From an uncultured Bacilli bacterium (GTDB lineage: Bacteria > Bacillota_I > Bacilli_A > RF39 > UBA660): 64,000 bases of DNA. The notes under the pieces are model-generated. The model saw only the letters and a program-made list of their open reading frames with translations. It made no database searches and had not been told where the DNA came from. Below are positions 15,420 through 53,809 of the stretch, one piece after another. The stretch's first letter is position 1, and the number at the start of each line of letters is the position of its first letter. Position numbers and translations under genes: made by a program. The stretch spans positions 18,478 to 82,477 of the forward strand of contig CAJUQG010000002.1 in the NCBI GenBank assembly GCA_910588025.1, in the 5' to 3' direction.

Positions 15420-17126
15420 TTATTTCTGTATTTTTTTCCTACTCATACTTTTTTGATTTTTTAAATGTTCATCAATTCTAAAGAAAATACAAATTTGTTT
15501 TTCGTTTTTCTTTTTTAATATTTCATAATTATCTTCGTTTTCATCGCGAATAATTTGCGCATCACTACAAAATTCTTGAAAATCAATCATTTGATAAGTT
15601 CCATTTTGATATTCTACTAAAACGTTTGGTATTATTGTTTGATTCACCGGAACTTTAAAATTCCAAAAAGTATTTTCACTATCTAAATCATATTTTATTT
15701 CATAAAGATCATAATAATAGTTTTCTGGTGTTTTATATTTTTTACTTTCATTATCATAATAGTAATATATTTTATAATCAGTTAGGAAACGCCACATTAT
15801 TTCTTTTCCTTGAATTTTTAAAATTTCTTTTATATTCGCTAAAAAGTATTCTAACATGTTTTGATATAAAGACGCGTTTTCACCGATTTGAAATTCTTTT
15901 TGAGATAAGTATTTTTGTAGTTCATTTATTTCACAAATCTTTTCTAAATTTATTTCAGAATTTAATAAAGAATACAAATAATAATCTAAATAGATTTGAA
16001 GTGTTTGAGGATCCTTTTGATTAAATCCATGAGTGAAAGATGCTAAATCTAGATTTTTTTGCTTTAAATTATTATCCATTTTTTCTAAAAATTGCTGTTT
16101 TGACTCTTGATCGAGATTCAGATAATTTAAAGGCATTTTGTCTGTTACTAAAAAACTTAAAAGCCATAGTGAATAACTTTCTTCTTTGGAAATTTCTTCT
16201 TGCAAAGATTCTCGATTTATTAAGTTTAAGTCATCAGATAAAGAACACGTTTTGTTATTTTTTGAGCTTTGTATTATGGTTGTAGAAAAATAGTTATTAT
16301 GAACACGAACAGGATAAGTATCACTTTTTCTAGATAAAAAGGAACCAGAAGGAATAAAGGTAGGTTCTCTATCTTGAGAAGTTAAGATTTGATTTAATAG
16401 ATGACGTTCAATGGGAATTGTTGAATATTGATTGATAATTAAATTAGTTTTTTTAGAGAATTGATAAGTAAATTTTATGGATTCATTATTGGATAATCTA
16501 TTTAATTGTTCTAAATCATTTAAAAATGAATTCATTTCTTGTTCTGTTAAAGATAATCTTGCTCTTAAAGATTTATATAAAAGTTCTTCTTTGTTAGTTA
16601 AAAGATAATAGACAACATTTTCTTCTCCGATGATATCACACATAATAGATAAACGAAGGTTGCCAACATTTTTTTCTTTATTTCCTAAAACAATGGTTTG
16701 AATACAGTCGAAAATGAGAGAATTTTCTTTTTGATAGTCATAAATATCTTTACTCATTAGTTGATGTATATCAGGTAAATCTGAAACTTTAAGGCGATGG
16801 GCGTAATGGTCCAATAAATAATTCATTGCCATTTGATATTCACTATTAAAGTATGATACATAATCTTGTATATCTTTTAAAATAGCATTTCTTAAAATTT
16901 GATCAGCATTCTCTCGATCAAAGAAACATTCAATATTCATATTAATTTGGTCGATTTTAGAATAACCATTTTTAGGAATAGACCCTAGTATGAGAAAGAA
17001 AAGAAGCAAATAATAGTTGCGCTTTATATTCTCTTTTACTTTTGGCTTTTTTTTCTTGGGATATAAATCTTTATCATCTAAATTTTTTTTCGGATTAACA
17101 TTTCGAAAATAATTATTTTTTTGCAT
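15420..17126 (-). CDS. hypothetical protein (568 aa from the ATG at 17124-17126; Lys-rich N-terminus, one TM, large Asn/Tyr/Leu-rich domain)
   Basis: Uninterrupted ORF between hpf and secA. An AAAGAGG RBS lies 7 nt upstream of MQKNNYF. No family recognised. Confidence 0.55.
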   Translation of the reverse strand: MQKNNYFRNVNPKKNLDDKDLYPKKKKPKVKENIKRNYYLLLFFLILGSIPKNGYSKIDQINMNIECFFDRENADQILRNAILKDIQDYVSYFNSEYQMAMNYLLDHYAHRLKVSDLPDIHQLMSKDIYDYQKENSLIFDCIQTIVLGNKEKNVGNLRLSIMCDIIGEENVVYYLLTNKEELLYKSLRARLSLTEQEMNSFLNDLEQLNRLSNNESIKFTYQFSKKTNLIINQYSTIPIERHLLNQILTSQDREPTFIPSGSFLSRKSDTYPVRVHNNYFSTTIIQSSKNNKTCSLSDDLNLINRESLQEEISKEESYSLWLLSFLVTDKMPLNYLNLDQESKQQFLEKMDNNLKQKNLDLASFTHGFNQKDPQTLQIYLDYYLYSLLNSEINLEKICEINELQKYLSQKEFQIGENASLYQNMLEYFLANIKEILKIQGKEIMWRFLTDYKIYYYYDNESKKYKTPENYYYDLYEIKYDLDSENTFWNFKVPVNQTIIPNVLVEYQNGTYQMIDFQEFCSDAQIIRDENEDNYEILKKKNEKQICIFFRIDEHLKNQKSMSRKKIQK

Positions 17127-17198
17127 ACAAAAACCTCTTTTAAGCTTATATTTTAGCACTTTTTTGGCAAAAGAAAAGAAAAACTTTTTTAGCTTTTC

Positions 17199-18000: not shown

Positions 18001-18332
18001 CTCTTCTACACCTCTCCTTCTTACTCTTTATTTACTGCTGATACTACTTTATCATGAATTCGTTTTCGTATACAATATAAACTATTCGACAAAATAAATG
18101 CATGCAATTGTCTTTAAAACTCATGATATAACTACCATATCTTAAAAATTTAAAGAAAAATGGTAACTTGTCTTAAATGATTTAAAATATGTCTGAAATA
18201 CATCTTGATATCATTTCACAAGACCACCTTTTCTTTTCGATTTTATTTTATGTTCTTCGAGTCTTAATTGAAATTTTTGAACCTTTTTTTCGATATAATG
18301 CAATTGTGTTACAAGAAAGGATAGTATTTTTA

Positions 18333-18947
18333 GTGAAAAAATGGTTTGTCGAAAATAGCTTTCAATTTATATCGAAATATCAACAATGTGATGATTTAAC
18401 AGAAAGAACAATTCGTTATGGATTAGAAACTTTGTATAATCTTTTTTCTAAACTGATTGTAATGCTTATTTTATCCATCTTTCTTGGAATATGGAAAGAA
18501 TATTTATTATTGGTAATTCTTTTTGCCAGTGCAAGACGATATGCTTATGGTCTTCATGCCAAAAAATCTTATCTTTGTTGGATTACTACTTTACCAATAT
18601 ATATTCTAGGTTGTTATTTCATTCGCTATGTAATGATTCCTCAGCCAATTATCTATATTCTATGGATTTTGGGATTTATATCTTTTGTGAAATGGGCACC
18701 AGCAGATACTCCAGCAAGACCATTAATTCATGTAGAATTAAGAAAGAAACAAAAGATTAAAGCTAGTATAATTTGTATTATTTATTTGATTTGTATTGTA
18801 GGATTTCAAAATCAATTGATTGCTAATGCTATTATTTATTGTTTAACGATCCAAGCGATTTGTATTAATCCTATTACTTATAAAATCACAAAAACACCTT
18901 TTGATAATTACAAATTATATTATGAAAAACATGGTTTAAATTATTGA
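18333..18947 (+). CDS. agrB: accessory gene regulator B (AgrD-processing membrane peptidase)
   Basis: ERTIRYGLETL... then RRYAYGLHAKKSYLCWITT, with catalytic His and Cys spaced as in AgrB. The likely GTG start at 18333 follows GAAAGG and gives 204 aa. The ORF track begins further upstream at 18189. Confidence 0.75.
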   Translation: MKKWFVENSFQFISKYQQCDDLTERTIRYGLETLYNLFSKLIVMLILSIFLGIWKEYLLLVILFASARRYAYGLHAKKSYLCWITTLPIYILGCYFIRYVMIPQPIIYILWILGFISFVKWAPADTPARPLIHVELRKKQKIKASIICIIYLICIVGFQNQLIANAIIYCLTIQAICINPITYKITKTPFDNYKLYYEKHGLNY

Positions 18948-18985
18948 TATAGATTTAAACAAATATAATTAAAGGAGGATTGTTC

Positions 18986-19102
18986 ATGAACTTTTTAGCA
19001 AATTTACTTTCTGGTACTGCATCTAAACTTGCAAATACTGGAAGCCAAGCAAGTGTTGGTTGGATTTGGGAAGAACCAGTTTGTCCAGAAGAAATTTTAT
19101 AA
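18986..19102 (+). CDS. agrD: AgrD-like autoinducing-peptide precursor (38 aa)
   Basis: MNFLANLLSGTASKLANTGSQASVGWIWEEPVCPEEIL. An AAAGGAGGA RBS lies 6 nt upstream. It has an amphipathic leader, an SVGWIW core and an acidic EEPxxPxEI tail, and sits immediately after agrB. Confidence 0.7.
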   Translation: MNFLANLLSGTASKLANTGSQASVGWIWEEPVCPEEIL

Positions 19103-19121
19103 TCAACTAGAGAAAGACAAA

Positions 19122-19157
19122 ATAAAAAAAGGTCAAGGCCATATGATCTTTTTTATT
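19122..19157. terminator. bidirectional rho-independent terminator between agrD and the convergent kinase gene
   Basis: AAAAAAAGGTCA-aggccata-TGATCTTTTTT: an A-tract, a stem with a G·U pair, then a T-tract. Confidence 0.5.
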
Positions 19158-20426
19158 TTACTTTTTTTCAATAATTATTTCATTAAAAAATAAATCATTA
19201 ATAATTGAGGTTTTTATTTTTAATTTTTTTCTTCCAATTAGAGAAAATAGTCCTATTCCGTGTCCTGTTTTTTTCGTTGTATATTTTAATGTTCCTAAGG
19301 CATCAATATCTAGAACAGTTTGGAATGTATTAATAATTTTTATGTGATAAGATTCTTCAGTTTCTTTCATATCAATCATTAAAATTTTTTCTTTCGTTTT
19401 TTCAGTAGCTTCTAGAGCATTATCTAATAAGATACCTAAGGCTTCACACAAGAGGTTATAACTTTTTGGGGTTAATTCATCATATACATTAGAATTAATA
19501 TTGTTATCAATTCCAATCGATAATTCATTGTTTTCAAAACCATATATCTTTTCATAAACAATTCCACTAATTCCCATGGGCATCTTTTGCATATTTTGAA
19601 TGGTTTTCGTATTTTGATTATATTCTTGAATTAAATCATTAATTAATTCTTGGCCTTTTTCATTTGAAACACTTTTCACACCGTTTAATTGATGAATTAG
19701 ATTATGTTTTAGCATTCGATAGTCATTAATAATTGTTAAATAAAACTCGTTGTTTCTAATTATATTTTCGTTGGTGACTTTTAATTCGTAATTATTATAT
19801 TCACGATTTAAAAACATGATTAAGAAAATAGTAATCGAAAAAAATAATAAATATATTTCTAAAGATAAAGAATTTAAACCAAATTTTTGGATAAAATCAT
19901 ATATTGTGAATCCTAAAGAGATTAAAACAATCATAATCAGTAAAAAGGAAAGATAAGGAAACTTAATTTTTTTCATATTTTTGTGTAATTTCGCAGACCA
20001 CTTTTTGATATGATTAGAATTTAATGTAAATAAAAGGATTGTTTCAACTACAATAGTATCAATAAATCGAATTTCTGTAATGCCAAAGGAAAAGAATTTA
20101 AAAGGAATAAGCGTTGAAAAAATCATAACTAAAATATCAATTATCATTCCTATAATACTAATCGTAGCGCCATAAAATATAATATCAAATACATCTTTTC
20201 GATATAATAAGTAATAAAGAACAAAATAAAAAAATAAGGATGTTAAGGTATTTAAAGTCATTAATTTAAAATGATATTCAAGGGTCATTATTAAAGCAAA
20301 GGGAATGATTAATAAATAAGATAAATAATGTACTTTTTTATCATGATTTGTTATTAATTTAAACCCAGTTGATACAGATAATTGAACTATGCAAGCTAAA
20401 AGAAAATAGATCACAAGATTTAGCAT
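19158..20426 (-). CDS. AgrC-like (HPK10) membrane sensor histidine kinase
   Basis: The N-terminal ~200 aa are polytopic. The H-box region is YRMLKHNLIHQLNG. The C-terminal GHKL ATPase has ...TGHGIGLFSL. Confidence 0.8.
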   Translation of the reverse strand: MLNLVIYFLLACIVQLSVSTGFKLITNHDKKVHYLSYLLIIPFALIMTLEYHFKLMTLNTLTSLFFYFVLYYLLYRKDVFDIIFYGATISIIGMIIDILVMIFSTLIPFKFFSFGITEIRFIDTIVVETILLFTLNSNHIKKWSAKLHKNMKKIKFPYLSFLLIMIVLISLGFTIYDFIQKFGLNSLSLEIYLLFFSITIFLIMFLNREYNNYELKVTNENIIRNNEFYLTIINDYRMLKHNLIHQLNGVKSVSNEKGQELINDLIQEYNQNTKTIQNMQKMPMGISGIVYEKIYGFENNELSIGIDNNINSNVYDELTPKSYNLLCEALGILLDNALEATEKTKEKILMIDMKETEESYHIKIINTFQTVLDIDALGTLKYTTKKTGHGIGLFSLIGRKKLKIKTSIINDLFFNEIIIEKK

Positions 20427-21142
20427 ACTCTTTCAACCTCCTTTTTATATTTTTTTGAAAGATATTCTACTTTTCCGCCATTGTCTAGCAAGAAATAGTT
20501 TTTAGGCCAATTCCATTCGTGAACTCTTTGACGATTGGCAATACAACTTCGATGAACTTGAATAAAGCGATCATCTAAAAGATTTACGATATCATTTAAG
20601 TTCATATTTAATTTAAAGACATTTGTATCTGTATGGACTAGTACTTTTCTTTCTTCTTTATCTCTTGTGATATGAGTAATCGCCCGATAGAAAATTTGTA
20701 AGTCAACATTACGATTTGATATACAGAGCATTTTATTATCAAAATTCTTTTGAAAAATCAGTTCTATATCTTTTTCTAATCGTTTTTCCATATCATAAAA
20801 TTTCTCTATAAAATTAAATACTTGGTAAACACTACGATAAACTGTTTCAAACATTTTGTCGTGAGAAGTTATGAATATAATTTCACTTTCCCAATCTTTT
20901 TCTCGAATCATTTTAGCAATCTCAATTCCACTAGTTTTGGTTTCTAATTCGATATCCATAATATACACTTTTCTAGTAGAATTGTCATCTATAATAGTTT
21001 TTAATTCACTTGTGTATTTTGTAAAATATTTGATATTAATGGTATTATCCTTGCTAATGATTACTCTTCTTAATACGTCTTTGATTGTTTCTTGGGTCTT
21101 TTTATCATCTTCAACCACAATAAAACTTGTCAAACTCATCAC
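20420..21142 (-). CDS. LytTR-family response regulator (AgrA-like)
   Basis: A receiver domain (VEDD...IMDIEL) plus a C-terminal LytTR DNA-binding domain (FIQVHRSCIANRQRV). It overlaps the kinase gene start. Confidence 0.85.
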   Translation of the reverse strand: MMSLTSFIVVEDDKKTQETIKDVLRRVIISKDNTINIKYFTKYTSELKTIIDDNSTRKVYIMDIELETKTSGIEIAKMIREKDWESEIIFITSHDKMFETVYRSVYQVFNFIEKFYDMEKRLEKDIELIFQKNFDNKMLCISNRNVDLQIFYRAITHITRDKEERKVLVHTDTNVFKLNMNLNDIVNLLDDRFIQVHRSCIANRQRVHEWNWPKNYFLLDNGGKVEYLSKKYKKEVERVC

Positions 21143-21210
21143 CTATCCTTTTGTTTACTAATTGCAATTATATCATATATTTTAAAATTGACCATACAAA
21201 AAAACACAAT

Positions 21211-21858
21211 TTATGGAAAATTGTGCCAATTTGCATTTTTTAGTAAATATTTGTCGTATTCTTCAAAATATAAAACTCTTTTCCCTGTTTTCCTTTCATA
21301 CTCACTGGCCATAAGTGGGATGTTATGATTGGATCCGATGAAGACAATTTTTTTAATTGATGGTTCATTTCTTAAAAAAAGATTTAGAAATTCTTCTAAT
21401 GAAATATTTATTTTTTTATGCCATAACAGAGATGTTTTCTCATTTTTTTGTAAATAAGTAAAGTAAGCATAATTTAAATTTAAATGAATCCATACAGAAT
21501 TTTTGGTTAATTGATAGAGATTTTTTTCTTTTATGAACTTTATTTCATCAACCGGTAAATCATCCAAAATTAACTTAATAATTTCTTTGTCCACTTCCTC
21601 AAAAGTGGGAGGTGTAATAAAATAAATAATATTGTGACGAAATCTTTTGATTAATTTGTATTTTTTTAAAAAAGTTTTTAACTGTTTTTGAAATTTAGGT
21701 CGATGAATAATTTTGCCAAATTTTAAAGTTTTTGGTAATAAATGATAAGTAATCAATCGGTTTTCTTTTTTCACAAAACAATGAATATTATCGTCTTCTA
21801 GATACATGATAAGTTTATTTTTCATAGAATCCCTCATTTGTTTTAGAAAGTGAATCAC
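21211..21858 (-). CDS. hypothetical protein (215 aa), first gene of the apparent operon with the LytTR regulator and the kinase
   Basis: ORF only; weak resemblance to actin-like/PilM N-terminal folds. Not assignable. Confidence 0.45.
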   Translation of the reverse strand: MIHFLKQMRDSMKNKLIMYLEDDNIHCFVKKENRLITYHLLPKTLKFGKIIHRPKFQKQLKTFLKKYKLIKRFRHNIIYFITPPTFEEVDKEIIKLILDDLPVDEIKFIKEKNLYQLTKNSVWIHLNLNYAYFTYLQKNEKTSLLWHKKINISLEEFLNLFLRNEPSIKKIVFIGSNHNIPLMASEYERKTGKRVLYFEEYDKYLLKNANWHNFP

Positions 21859-26159: not shown

Positions 26160-26702
26160 ATTTTATCAAGAAAAAAGATTCTTTTTAAGAACCTTTTAAG
26201 CTACAATGGTTTTTGTTGTGGTAAATTATAAATTAATTTTACGGCTTAGGTCGAGTTGAATTTCTCTACTTTCTACCTTTGGTTACCCGAGGGCGATTTC
26301 TCTTTCAAGAAAGCAACTAAGTGTTACCAGCTTAATTACTCGATTACCACTGAGTCCGCACTTTAATCCTTATAATTATAACATTCTAGAGGTTTTCCCT
26401 GACACCCACTATCCAATACTTATTCGCTTTTGCAAATACGATTTTGATAATCATCTATTTGATCGGGAATAGACTTTATTCATTATCTCCCACGTATTCA
26501 CTCACGACATGCACTTTTTTTATTTCTTGCGGGATTTTAGGAGATTCATTATATGCCATTATAACTTTCCTAAAATCTTAAATTATATAACCACCCCAAC
26601 TTGGGCAGAAGAAGCGAATTATATAAAGTGCTTTTCATGCAATTGGTAGATTTTTAGCCCTACCTTCATATTGTGTGTGTGACTAGAATAATGCACCACA
26701 TG
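26160..26702 (-). ncRNA. large structured noncoding RNA candidate (~525 nt, about 40% GC versus about 27% in the flanks), possibly an OLE-type RNA
   Basis: No ORF longer than 26 codons on either strand. GC is locally elevated (for example GGTTACCCGAGGGCGATTTC, CCACTGAGTCCGCAC). A consensus sigma-A promoter lies at its 5' end and a terminator at its 3' end. It sits immediately upstream of a 4-TM DxxxD protein. Confidence 0.45.
26168..26197 (-). terminator. intrinsic terminator/attenuator at the 3' end of the large noncoding transcript, just upstream of the membrane-protein RBS
   Basis: Minus strand GGTTCTT-AAA-AAGAATC followed by TTTTTT: a 7-bp stem with one G·U pair. Confidence 0.55.
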
Positions 26703-26709
26703 ACAATGA

Positions 26710-26738
26710 ATTATACACTATTTTTACTTTTTTGTCAA
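26710..26738 (-). promoter_or_regulatory. consensus sigma-A promoter TTGACA-N17-TATAAT driving the large ncRNA/leader
   Basis: Minus strand: TTGACA aaaaagtaaaaatagtg TATAAT. The -35 hexamer is plus-strand 26733-26738 and the -10 hexamer is 26710-26715. Confidence 0.7.
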
Positions 26739-53677: not shown

Positions 53678-53715
53678 TATAGTTGATAAATATATTTATT
53701 TTTGATAGAATTTAT

Positions 53716-53797
53716 TTGTGCAACAAATATATTGCAAAATGGTCAGGATCGGAAGATAGCAGCCAATGTAATCCCTATTTGTGTGCACTTTTTTTAT
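53716..53797 (+). ncRNA. ffs: small (4.5S-type) signal recognition particle RNA
   Basis: The hairpin GTGCAACAAATA...TATTTGTGTGCAC encloses GGTCAGGATCGGAAGATAGCAGCC, which matches the SRP domain-IV consensus GUCAGGUCCGGAAGGAAGCAGCC. A T-run follows. Confidence 0.65.
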
Positions 53798-53809
53798 TGA
53801 AGGTGAAGT

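Follow-up and report, generated by a model that had tools for sequence, protein, structure and literature searches.

The 64,000-nucleotide stretch analysed here (the window) comes from the genome of an uncultured Bacilli bacterium (contig CAJUQG010000002.1). An initial annotation had described in it an agr-type quorum-sensing locus in which serine replaces the ring cysteine of the signal peptide (core SVGWIW) and in which the genes form two convergent units. These three main claims stand at the sequence level, and all open reading frames (ORFs) named there were found again by ORF listing and direct reading. By homology, positions 18169-21194 could be confirmed as a complete agr-type system comprising AgrB, AgrD, an AgrC-like kinase and a LytTR regulator. 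Its parts are as follows:

18169..18198, plus strand: direct repeat TGTCTTAAAT-N11-TGTCTGAAA with a 21-nt period, candidate site of the LytTR regulator (autoinduction box)
18294..18299, plus strand: TATAAT, probable -10 element of agrBD, invariant in 10 csp-agrB intergenic regions
18333..18947, plus strand: agrB, 204 aa, predicted membrane cysteine endopeptidase/cyclase
18971..18978, plus strand: ribosome-binding site (RBS) of agrD, AAAGGAGG, 7 nt ahead of ATG 18986, read directly and conserved in relatives
18986..19102, plus strand: agrD, 38 aa, MNFLANLLSGTASKLANTGSQASVGWIWEEPVCPEEIL
19120..19159, no strand assigned: A-tract, hairpin (GGTCA-8 nt-TGATC) and T-tract separating agrD from the convergent kinase gene
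19158..20426, minus strand: AgrC-like sensor histidine kinase, 422 aa
20420..21139, minus strand: AgrA-like response regulator (REC + LytTR), 239 aa
21167..21194, minus strand: regulator-kinase promoter, TGGTCA, 16 nt, TG-n-TATAAT (extended -10, 21175-21167)

The ORF that contains agrB (18189-18947, plus strand) matches the Pfam AgrB family PF04647 with E = 2.9e-33 and 115 bits (cut-off 23). The catalytic residues proposed to lie in RRYAYGLHAKKSYLC proved to be well chosen: they are His75 and Cys82, seven residues apart, and neither varies among 34 aligned homologues, nor do the PADTP and INP motifs. The proposed start at ATG 18189 had to be abandoned. Nearly all homologues are about 204 aa long and align from MKKxF, which is equivalent to GTG 18333, and the invariant TATAAT at 18294-18299 lies inside the long ORF; we therefore place the true start at GTG 18333. 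The corresponding 252-aa AgrB carries an extension that most homologues lack and that encloses the invariant -10 element, and the ATG at 18189 itself belongs to the conserved TGT of the upstream repeat. The closest AgrB homologues found all derive from metagenome-assembled genomes (MAGs) of uncultured gut Bacilli. PDB sequence searches with AgrD and AgrB gave no match.

Downstream of agrB, the strong RBS and the 38-aa AgrD read in the initial annotation were both recovered: AAAGGAGG precedes ATG 18986, and the peptide passes the curated cut-off of the NCBIfam model TIGR04223 (quorum_AgrD; 21.8 bits against 19). At NCBI the peptide already bears the name "cyclic lactone autoinducer peptide [Bacilli bacterium]". 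The same small ORF, in architecture, follows agrB in every related locus long enough to show it, so that the agrD ORF is not a chance occurrence. AgrD consists of a leader (residues 1-22, ending in SQA), a predicted ring (S23-V-G-W-I-W28) and a follower (E29-EPVCPEEIL38) whose PxxP motif is formed by P31 and P34. The core SVGWIW has no cysteine, and the sole cysteine of the precursor, C33, lies in the follower within PxxP. The leader, described earlier as amphipathic, is moderately so and no more, with a hydrophobic moment of 0.40 that is equalled by 7.5% of shuffled sequences.

The kinase and the LytTR regulator are indeed encoded on the opposite strand and converge on agrBD, thus forming a second separate unit in which the regulator comes before the kinase. 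The kinase combines a HATPase_c_5 domain (2e-10) with an H-box at His241, and its N-terminal ~205 residues include five or more hydrophobic segments. In the regulator we found the expected Response_reg (8.3e-10) and LytTR (3.1e-13) domains of Pfam, together with Asp62. Its ORF had been given as 20420-21142; the start is most likely ATG 21139, which gives 239 aa, as an AAGGA RBS lies 6 nt ahead of this codon and conspecific contigs annotate the regulator at the same length. The end of the regulator gene and the start of the kinase gene share 7 nt, and the two genes are predicted to be translationally coupled. The best NCBIfam match of the regulator is quorum_RR_AgrA (2.4e-13, under the equivalog cut-off), and since both proteins score far under the AgrC and AgrA equivalog cut-offs, they are relatives rather than orthologues of the staphylococcal proteins. 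On one conspecific contig (L095:10210-11441) the kinase gene is split into ORFs of 63 and 335 aa, with agrB, agrD and the regulator gene intact, which recalls agr-defective staphylococci and could be a natural variant with a defective receptor.

The serine allele is widespread. The exact 38-aa AgrD occurs in at least 175 contigs (300 index blocks) of public collections; of the seven conspecific occurrences shown, all but one (L095) retain undamaged genes for AgrB, kinase and regulator. The Joint Genome Institute (JGI) metagenome collection was also scanned for VGWIWEEP with a degenerate DNA pattern; this gave a single match, in a high-GC contig and by chance, so that this search is uninformative on allele frequency, for which the exact-sequence look-ups are informative. 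L083, a distinct lineage whose AgrB and kinase are 83% and 87% identical to those of the window, bears the same QASVGWIWEEPVCPEEIL. Between the two agrD genes we counted nine synonymous and two non-synonymous differences (synonymous divergence dS ~0.5; non-synonymous to synonymous ratio dN/dS ~0.045), the latter two both in the leader, with the last 17 residues unchanged. The next lineage, L085-L088 (AgrB 77% identical), encodes VACVGWIWEEPACPEEIL. Thus, QA-S-VGWIW-EEP in the window and L083 stands against VA-C-VGWIW-EEP in L085-L088, with codon AGT against TGT, and Ser23 aligns on the cysteine of the nearest Cys lineage in an otherwise identical ring, in agreement with the proposal that serine replaces the ring cysteine. 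The initial annotation had allowed that a cysteine-containing core had simply been lost here. Homologues with such a core (CVGWIW) exist, but the Ser allele is under purifying selection within a complete locus and is therefore maintained, not the product of a recent loss. Between the window and L085 the regulator is 84% identical, AgrB 77% and the kinase 59%; a variable kinase beside a conserved regulator is the pattern that would be expected of agr specificity groups.

A profile search with AgrB homologues in species-representative genomes recovered 80 loci, all from uncultured gut MAGs labelled as Bacilli, Tenericutes, Erysipelotrichaceae or Mycoplasma sp. CAG:776; the relatives include Candidatus Ventrenecus and Candidatus Caccenecus. 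Every locus long enough shows the same synteny, with hpf and csp pointing left, agrB and agrD pointing right, and the genes for kinase, regulator and M23 peptidase pointing left again, and the closer lineages, fetched separately, have the identical gene order. The split layout noted earlier is therefore real as far as the separate convergent units are concerned, yet it represents no local rearrangement; judging from this synteny, it is the ancestral state of a clade of ~80 species. With 81 recovered relatives and the window, 82 AgrDs could be compared, and all follow one design: a nucleophile, four variable residues, one of W/F/Y/L and [DE]EP. The nucleophile position holds Cys in 41, Thr in 39 and Ser in two (the window and L083). 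Thr-type loci are L024, L032, L034, L037, L038, L040, L044-L054, L056-L059, L062-L074 and L077-L080, with peptides such as ...ARTWWFFWDEPECPEELI; most of their cores are devoid of Cys, and some of the peptides reach the TIGR04223 cut-off. In the AgrB neighbour-joining tree, Cys-type loci are scattered in a Thr-dominated clade, which implies several Cys/Thr switches. From the codons (Cys TGT/TGC, Ser AGT, Thr ACN), Ser would be a one-step intermediate between the two. Taken together, an oxygen nucleophile appears to be tolerated in the AgrB family of the window. In two loci, L043 and L078, agrD encodes adjacent Thr and Cys (…SKTCMFAFDEP…), with Thr at the nucleophile position of the family and Cys at the position classical for five-residue rings; this may be a transitional state.

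The cysteine of the follower (codon 19082-19084 in the window) was initially regarded as unusual, which is contradicted by its conservation in two of the family's three clades. It is present, in a CPEE motif, in 41/41 Ser/Thr-type precursors and in 15/41 Cys-type ones, and its losses are confined to Cys-type lineages (L007/L008, L060 and the entire ADKDLL clade). The tie between this residue and the Ser/Thr types is suggestive, being confounded by phylogeny, and the follower cysteine may contribute to ester formation or help AgrB to recognise the precursor.

As for the regulatory elements, the pattern of TGTCTTAAAT-N11-TGTCTGAAA is matched exactly nowhere else in the window, the three further matches with one mismatch being at chance level. 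In the alignment of csp-agrB intergenic regions, 10 relatives show no change in the TGT and AAA(T) columns of the repeat, and the spacer is variable; a strict pattern finds the repeat in 24 of 81 loci, and in 21 of these it sits 120-134 nt from the start of agrB. Its geometry fits a LytTR dimer site, which makes it a candidate for binding by the regulator. The agrBD promoter has no good -35 element. That of the regulator-kinase operon matches at 10 of 12 positions plus the TG, its TATG.TATAATTGC is invariant in six relatives, and its extended -10 element falls within the 70-nt gap after the upstream gene, all of which points to an own promoter for this operon. Past their -10 elements, the agrB (18290-18325, plus strand) and regulator (21176-21143, minus strand) promoters are alike, reading GATATAAT(T)GCAATT…AAAGGATAG, which suggests a common origin or a shared operator near the transcription start. 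Two more blocks of the csp-agrB intergenic region are invariant, TCGACA at 18086-18091 and AAACTCA.GA at 18117-18126; they may be parts of the csp promoter or leader. In turn, the bidirectional terminator proposed between the convergent units is borne out in part. A hairpin between A- and T-tracts is kept almost base for base in six relatives, yet its five-pair stem folds weakly (-10.4 kcal/mol on the plus and -8.0 on the minus strand; z = -2.6 and -1.2), and a consensus terminator scan did not call it. It is a probable weak two-way terminator.

We read this locus as a functional, chromosomally fixed agr quorum-sensing system of an uncultured gut Bacilli species that uses a serine nucleophile, a prediction to which we assign a probability of about 0.65. 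According to this model, agrB and agrD would be transcribed rightwards, AgrB would recognise the PxxP follower EEPVCPEEIL and cut after Trp28 to form an acyl-enzyme on Cys82, and the hydroxyl of Ser23 would resolve this intermediate into a six-residue macrolactone, S-V-G-W-I-W. Removal of the leader outside the cell, plausibly after SQA22, would leave a tail-less peptide to be sensed by the polytopic AgrC-like kinase. The kinase would then phosphorylate the LytTR regulator, both proteins being expressed from their own extended -10 promoter, and the regulator would feed back on agrBD through the direct repeat of 21-bp period upstream of agrB.

Several points weigh against this reading. That a secreted cyclic peptide activates the kinase is a prediction from sequence. 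One conspecific contig, L095, has a disrupted kinase. Nothing in AgrB independently signals ester chemistry: in the homologue alignment we found no AgrB residues common to the Ser and Thr lineages and absent from the Cys lineages. Five AgrB columns do split Thr from Cys lineages, and the Ser lineages hold the Cys-type residue in all five, so that these columns reflect phylogeny and are no signature of chemistry. The repeat lies ~95 nt upstream of the conserved -10 element, an atypical placement, as in well-studied agr and com promoters such boxes abut the -35 element. Its role is consequently uncertain, and it might serve another promoter or the divergent csp gene. The same repeat was looked for upstream of the regulator gene and not found there.

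The size of the ring is a separate matter. The initial annotation correctly placed Val where thiolactone precursors have Cys and Ser one residue further upstream, yet this register is common to the whole family and not peculiar to the window. We found that the distance from the nucleophile to the second proline of PxxP is 11 in the window and 10 in six of six canonical AgrDs, each with its sequence confirmed by an exact look-up (S. aureus I-III, S. epidermidis, Listeria and C. perfringens). It is likewise 11 in all 82 AgrDs of the family, the window included, and in C. acetobutylicum AgrD (…GKCVLVTLYEPKMPEELL…), where CVLVTL/YEPKMPEELL matches SVGWIW/EEPVCPEEIL in spacing. Ungapped TIGR04223 alignments place window residues 2-37 on profile positions 1-36, C. 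acetobutylicum 13-49 on 2-38 and S. aureus II 6-43 on 1-38; Ser23 of the window and the C. acetobutylicum cysteine thus share one profile position, one ahead of the S. aureus cysteine. C. acetobutylicum AgrD and its relatives have been assigned six-membered rings, and a synthetic R6T0 peptide restores signalling (PMC10301443). On the strength of both the spacing and the profile coordinates, we prefer a division into the ring SVGWIW and the follower EEPVCPEEIL, and a ring of six residues is predicted, at about even odds.

The same system could instead make a five-residue ring, S-V-G-W-I, with AgrB cutting between Ile27 and Trp28, a version that we consider rather doubtful. The W/F/Y/L residue ahead of the acidic follower might be the first residue of the follower itself; the position is limited to these four residues family-wide and is more conserved than ring positions 2-5. 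The corresponding position is Y, H or F in Listeria, C. perfringens and LamD, which also counts against a six-residue ring. Five-membered rings are by far the commonest among autoinducing peptides (AIPs), and in C. thermocellum an aromatic residue, Tyr30, comes right after a verified five-residue Ser lactone ring (PMC5322536). Yet, a ring of five would put the follower prolines at +4/+7, and the six verified AgrDs and that of C. acetobutylicum have them at +3/+6; the profile coordinates likewise set Ser23, as the C. acetobutylicum cysteine, one position before that of S. aureus. The calculated [M+H]+ values are 729.372 for cyclic SVGWIW and 543.293 for cyclic SVGWI.

Another possibility concerns the final form of the product. 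The mature signal could be a head-to-tail cyclo(SVGWIW), formed by a cut before Ser23 and an O-to-N acyl shift, in parallel to the clostridial cyclic AIPs (cAIPs); this too we regard as unlikely. The S-Q-A ahead of Ser23 is like a signal-peptidase site, and Ala precedes the nucleophile in most Cys-type relatives. The leader cleavage site that such a product requires is, however, putative, and in the Thr clade the residue preceding the nucleophile is R, Y, F or E, not Ala. O-to-N acyl shifts are, as a matter of general chemistry, slower than S-to-N shifts. Tail-less thiolactone AIPs of Ruminiclostridium rearrange to lactams within minutes, and whether tail-less Ser lactones stay esters or become rearranged lactams was called open by the authors (PMC8251862). 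As SQA/S resembles a leader-peptidase site, this question applies to the window peptide as well. The peptides of C. thermocellum (PMC5322536) and C. acetobutylicum (PMC10301443) are both tail-less, and the former, with its Ser, was reported as a lactone (PMC5322536).

That the change from Cys to Ser killed cyclisation, leaving a decaying or "signal-null" allele or a linear peptide only, is very improbable: the identical ring residues of the nearest Cys lineage imply a single T-to-A change, and the broken kinase of L095 and the lack of an enzyme signature for ester formation in AgrB would suit it, but agrD has been under purifying selection since the Ser lineages split, with core and follower unchanged, the other three genes are intact in both of them, the allele is widespread, 39 species whose loci are intact have fixed Thr at this position, and Ser lactone AIPs are proven in other organisms (PMC8251862, PMC5322536). 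Cys33 was also considered as the ring nucleophile and rejected, since this residue, five from the C-terminus, falls inside the PxxP recognition motif and many Cys-type relatives lack it.

Ser lactone AIPs, six-membered rings and split agr operons each have precedent, and the serine-nucleophile system of the window appears to combine two rare features. The newer observation concerns its relatives, a large syntenic family with Thr at the nucleophile position in half of the species; our literature searches returned no description of AIPs linked through Thr. We tentatively propose, at somewhat less than even odds, that six-residue oxygen-ester macrocycles are the routine product of the AgrBs of this gut-Bacilli clade, formed via Thr in half of its species (39/82), and that a change of the heteroatom is a route to new pherotypes. 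If true, Ser (AGT) would be a single-step mutational bridge from Cys (TGT) to Thr (ACT). The locus offers a defined, testable peptide (cyclic SVGWIW, [M+H]+ 729.372) together with a cognate receptor pair from a widespread uncultured gut bacterium. The window and its sister lineage, with Ser and Cys in otherwise identical rings, form a natural experiment on the acceptance of hydroxyl nucleophiles by AgrB. The same pair bears on whether the exchange of thioester for ester alone alters receptor specificity or signal stability, a question of AIP chemistry approached so far mainly via synthetic analogues.

Among characterised systems, the Agr system of C. acetobutylicum (CA_C0079, R6T0) comes closest in nucleophile-PxxP spacing and in its predicted six-membered, probably tail-less ring (PMC10301443). 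It also has agrBD and the two-component genes in separate operons (agrBD and agrCA; PMC10301443), and both hosts are spore-formers. In contrast to C. acetobutylicum, the nucleophile is Ser and not Cys, the units are convergent and the regulator precedes the kinase. No homologue of the LanM-like CA_C0082 was found beside the agr cluster of the window, the neighbours being csp, hpf, the gene of a 204-aa actin-fold protein and an M23 peptidase gene; this association is reported for clostridia only (PMC10301443) and is not required for ring size. Ser-linked AIPs are rare but established (PMC8251862), and the Ser lactone of C. thermocellum was confirmed by liquid chromatography-tandem mass spectrometry (LC-MS/MS; PMC5322536). 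The AIP of the S. intermedius group and the C. thermocellum AgrD product R5T0 (PMC5322536; cited in PMC8251862) share with the window a Ser at the ring-Cys position, although theirs are five-residue rings. In C. thermocellum the cut falls after the Ala just before Ser, and SQA/S would permit the same here. Its agrD is, however, an orphan without adjacent agrB, agrC or agrA (PMC5322536), whereas the locus of the window is complete.

In comparison with S. aureus agrBDCA, the four components are the same, the AgrB His and Cys are likewise seven residues apart, the follower is similar (DEPKVPAEL in type II, EEPVCPEEI here), and between pherotype lineages the kinase is hypervariable and the regulator conserved. 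Unlike here, the S. aureus genes form a single operon with a divergent RNAIII, nothing of the kind having been identified in the window, and the product is a five-residue thiolactone with an exocyclic tail. Among close relatives within the staphylococci, both Cys and Ser alleles of the AIP occur. The initial annotation had likened the core to that of LamD of Lactobacillus plantarum. The LamBDCA system, encoded in one operon, yields LamD558, a tail-less five-residue thiolactone, cyclic CVGIW, near in ring composition to the CVGWI(W) of the sister lineage. The LamD sequence used gave no exact database match, and this comparison is kept only as a lead. The Fsr system of E. faecalis (FsrD/GBAP) also makes a Ser-linked lactone with an AgrB-like enzyme, and differs in locus layout. 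The ring of GBAP is much larger, with nine residues.

Upstream of the regulator gene lies the "215-aa gene" behind which the kinase and regulator had been placed:

21211-21825, minus strand: small actin-fold gene, probably 204 aa, with predicted structure

The gene does adjoin the regulator, but it is an unrelated neighbour, and the regulator has its own conserved promoter. Its product has no Pfam or NCBIfam match, and a sequence search returned only seven relatives. The predicted fold (predicted local distance difference test, pLDDT, 88.9) is that of a minimal actin-like ATPase, with Mbl and MreB as top structural matches. The protein evolves as fast as the kinase, its identity being 77%, 50% and 49% where that of the regulator is 94%, 84% and 83%. 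A role as an agr accessory factor, e.g., a leader protease like MroQ, was rejected, as the protein lacks membrane segments and its actin-like fold is predicted with confidence. In one relative spoIIID adjoins the gene, which would be a neighbour belonging to a sporulation/cell-wall block (SpoIID, M23 peptidase) and not an agr component. For the short gene between the regulator and M23 peptidase genes, tblastn with the window copy found matches only in closer relatives.

On the other side of the locus, a 579-aa ORF without a Pfam match (15420-17159, minus strand) lies between secA and hpf; relatives L083, L085 and L091 have a gene of 549-597 aa at the same secA-hpf position. Beyond secA, the conspecific contigs (L093-L098:1-3800) are not alike in the adjoining block, whose variants include integrase fragments, Fic, an OLD-like ATPase, KilA-N, or a LysR regulator with DUF2099; this indicates a variable mobile-element insertion site. 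Two structured RNAs were also detected in the window. One, at 53707-53804 (plus strand), is a small bacterial signal recognition particle (SRP) RNA (56.1 bits), an ordinary housekeeping feature. The other, at 26202-26715 (minus strand), is a full-length ornate large extremophilic (OLE) RNA (242.7 bits; gathering score 50), and the genome that carries it is apparently that of an animal-gut Bacilli.

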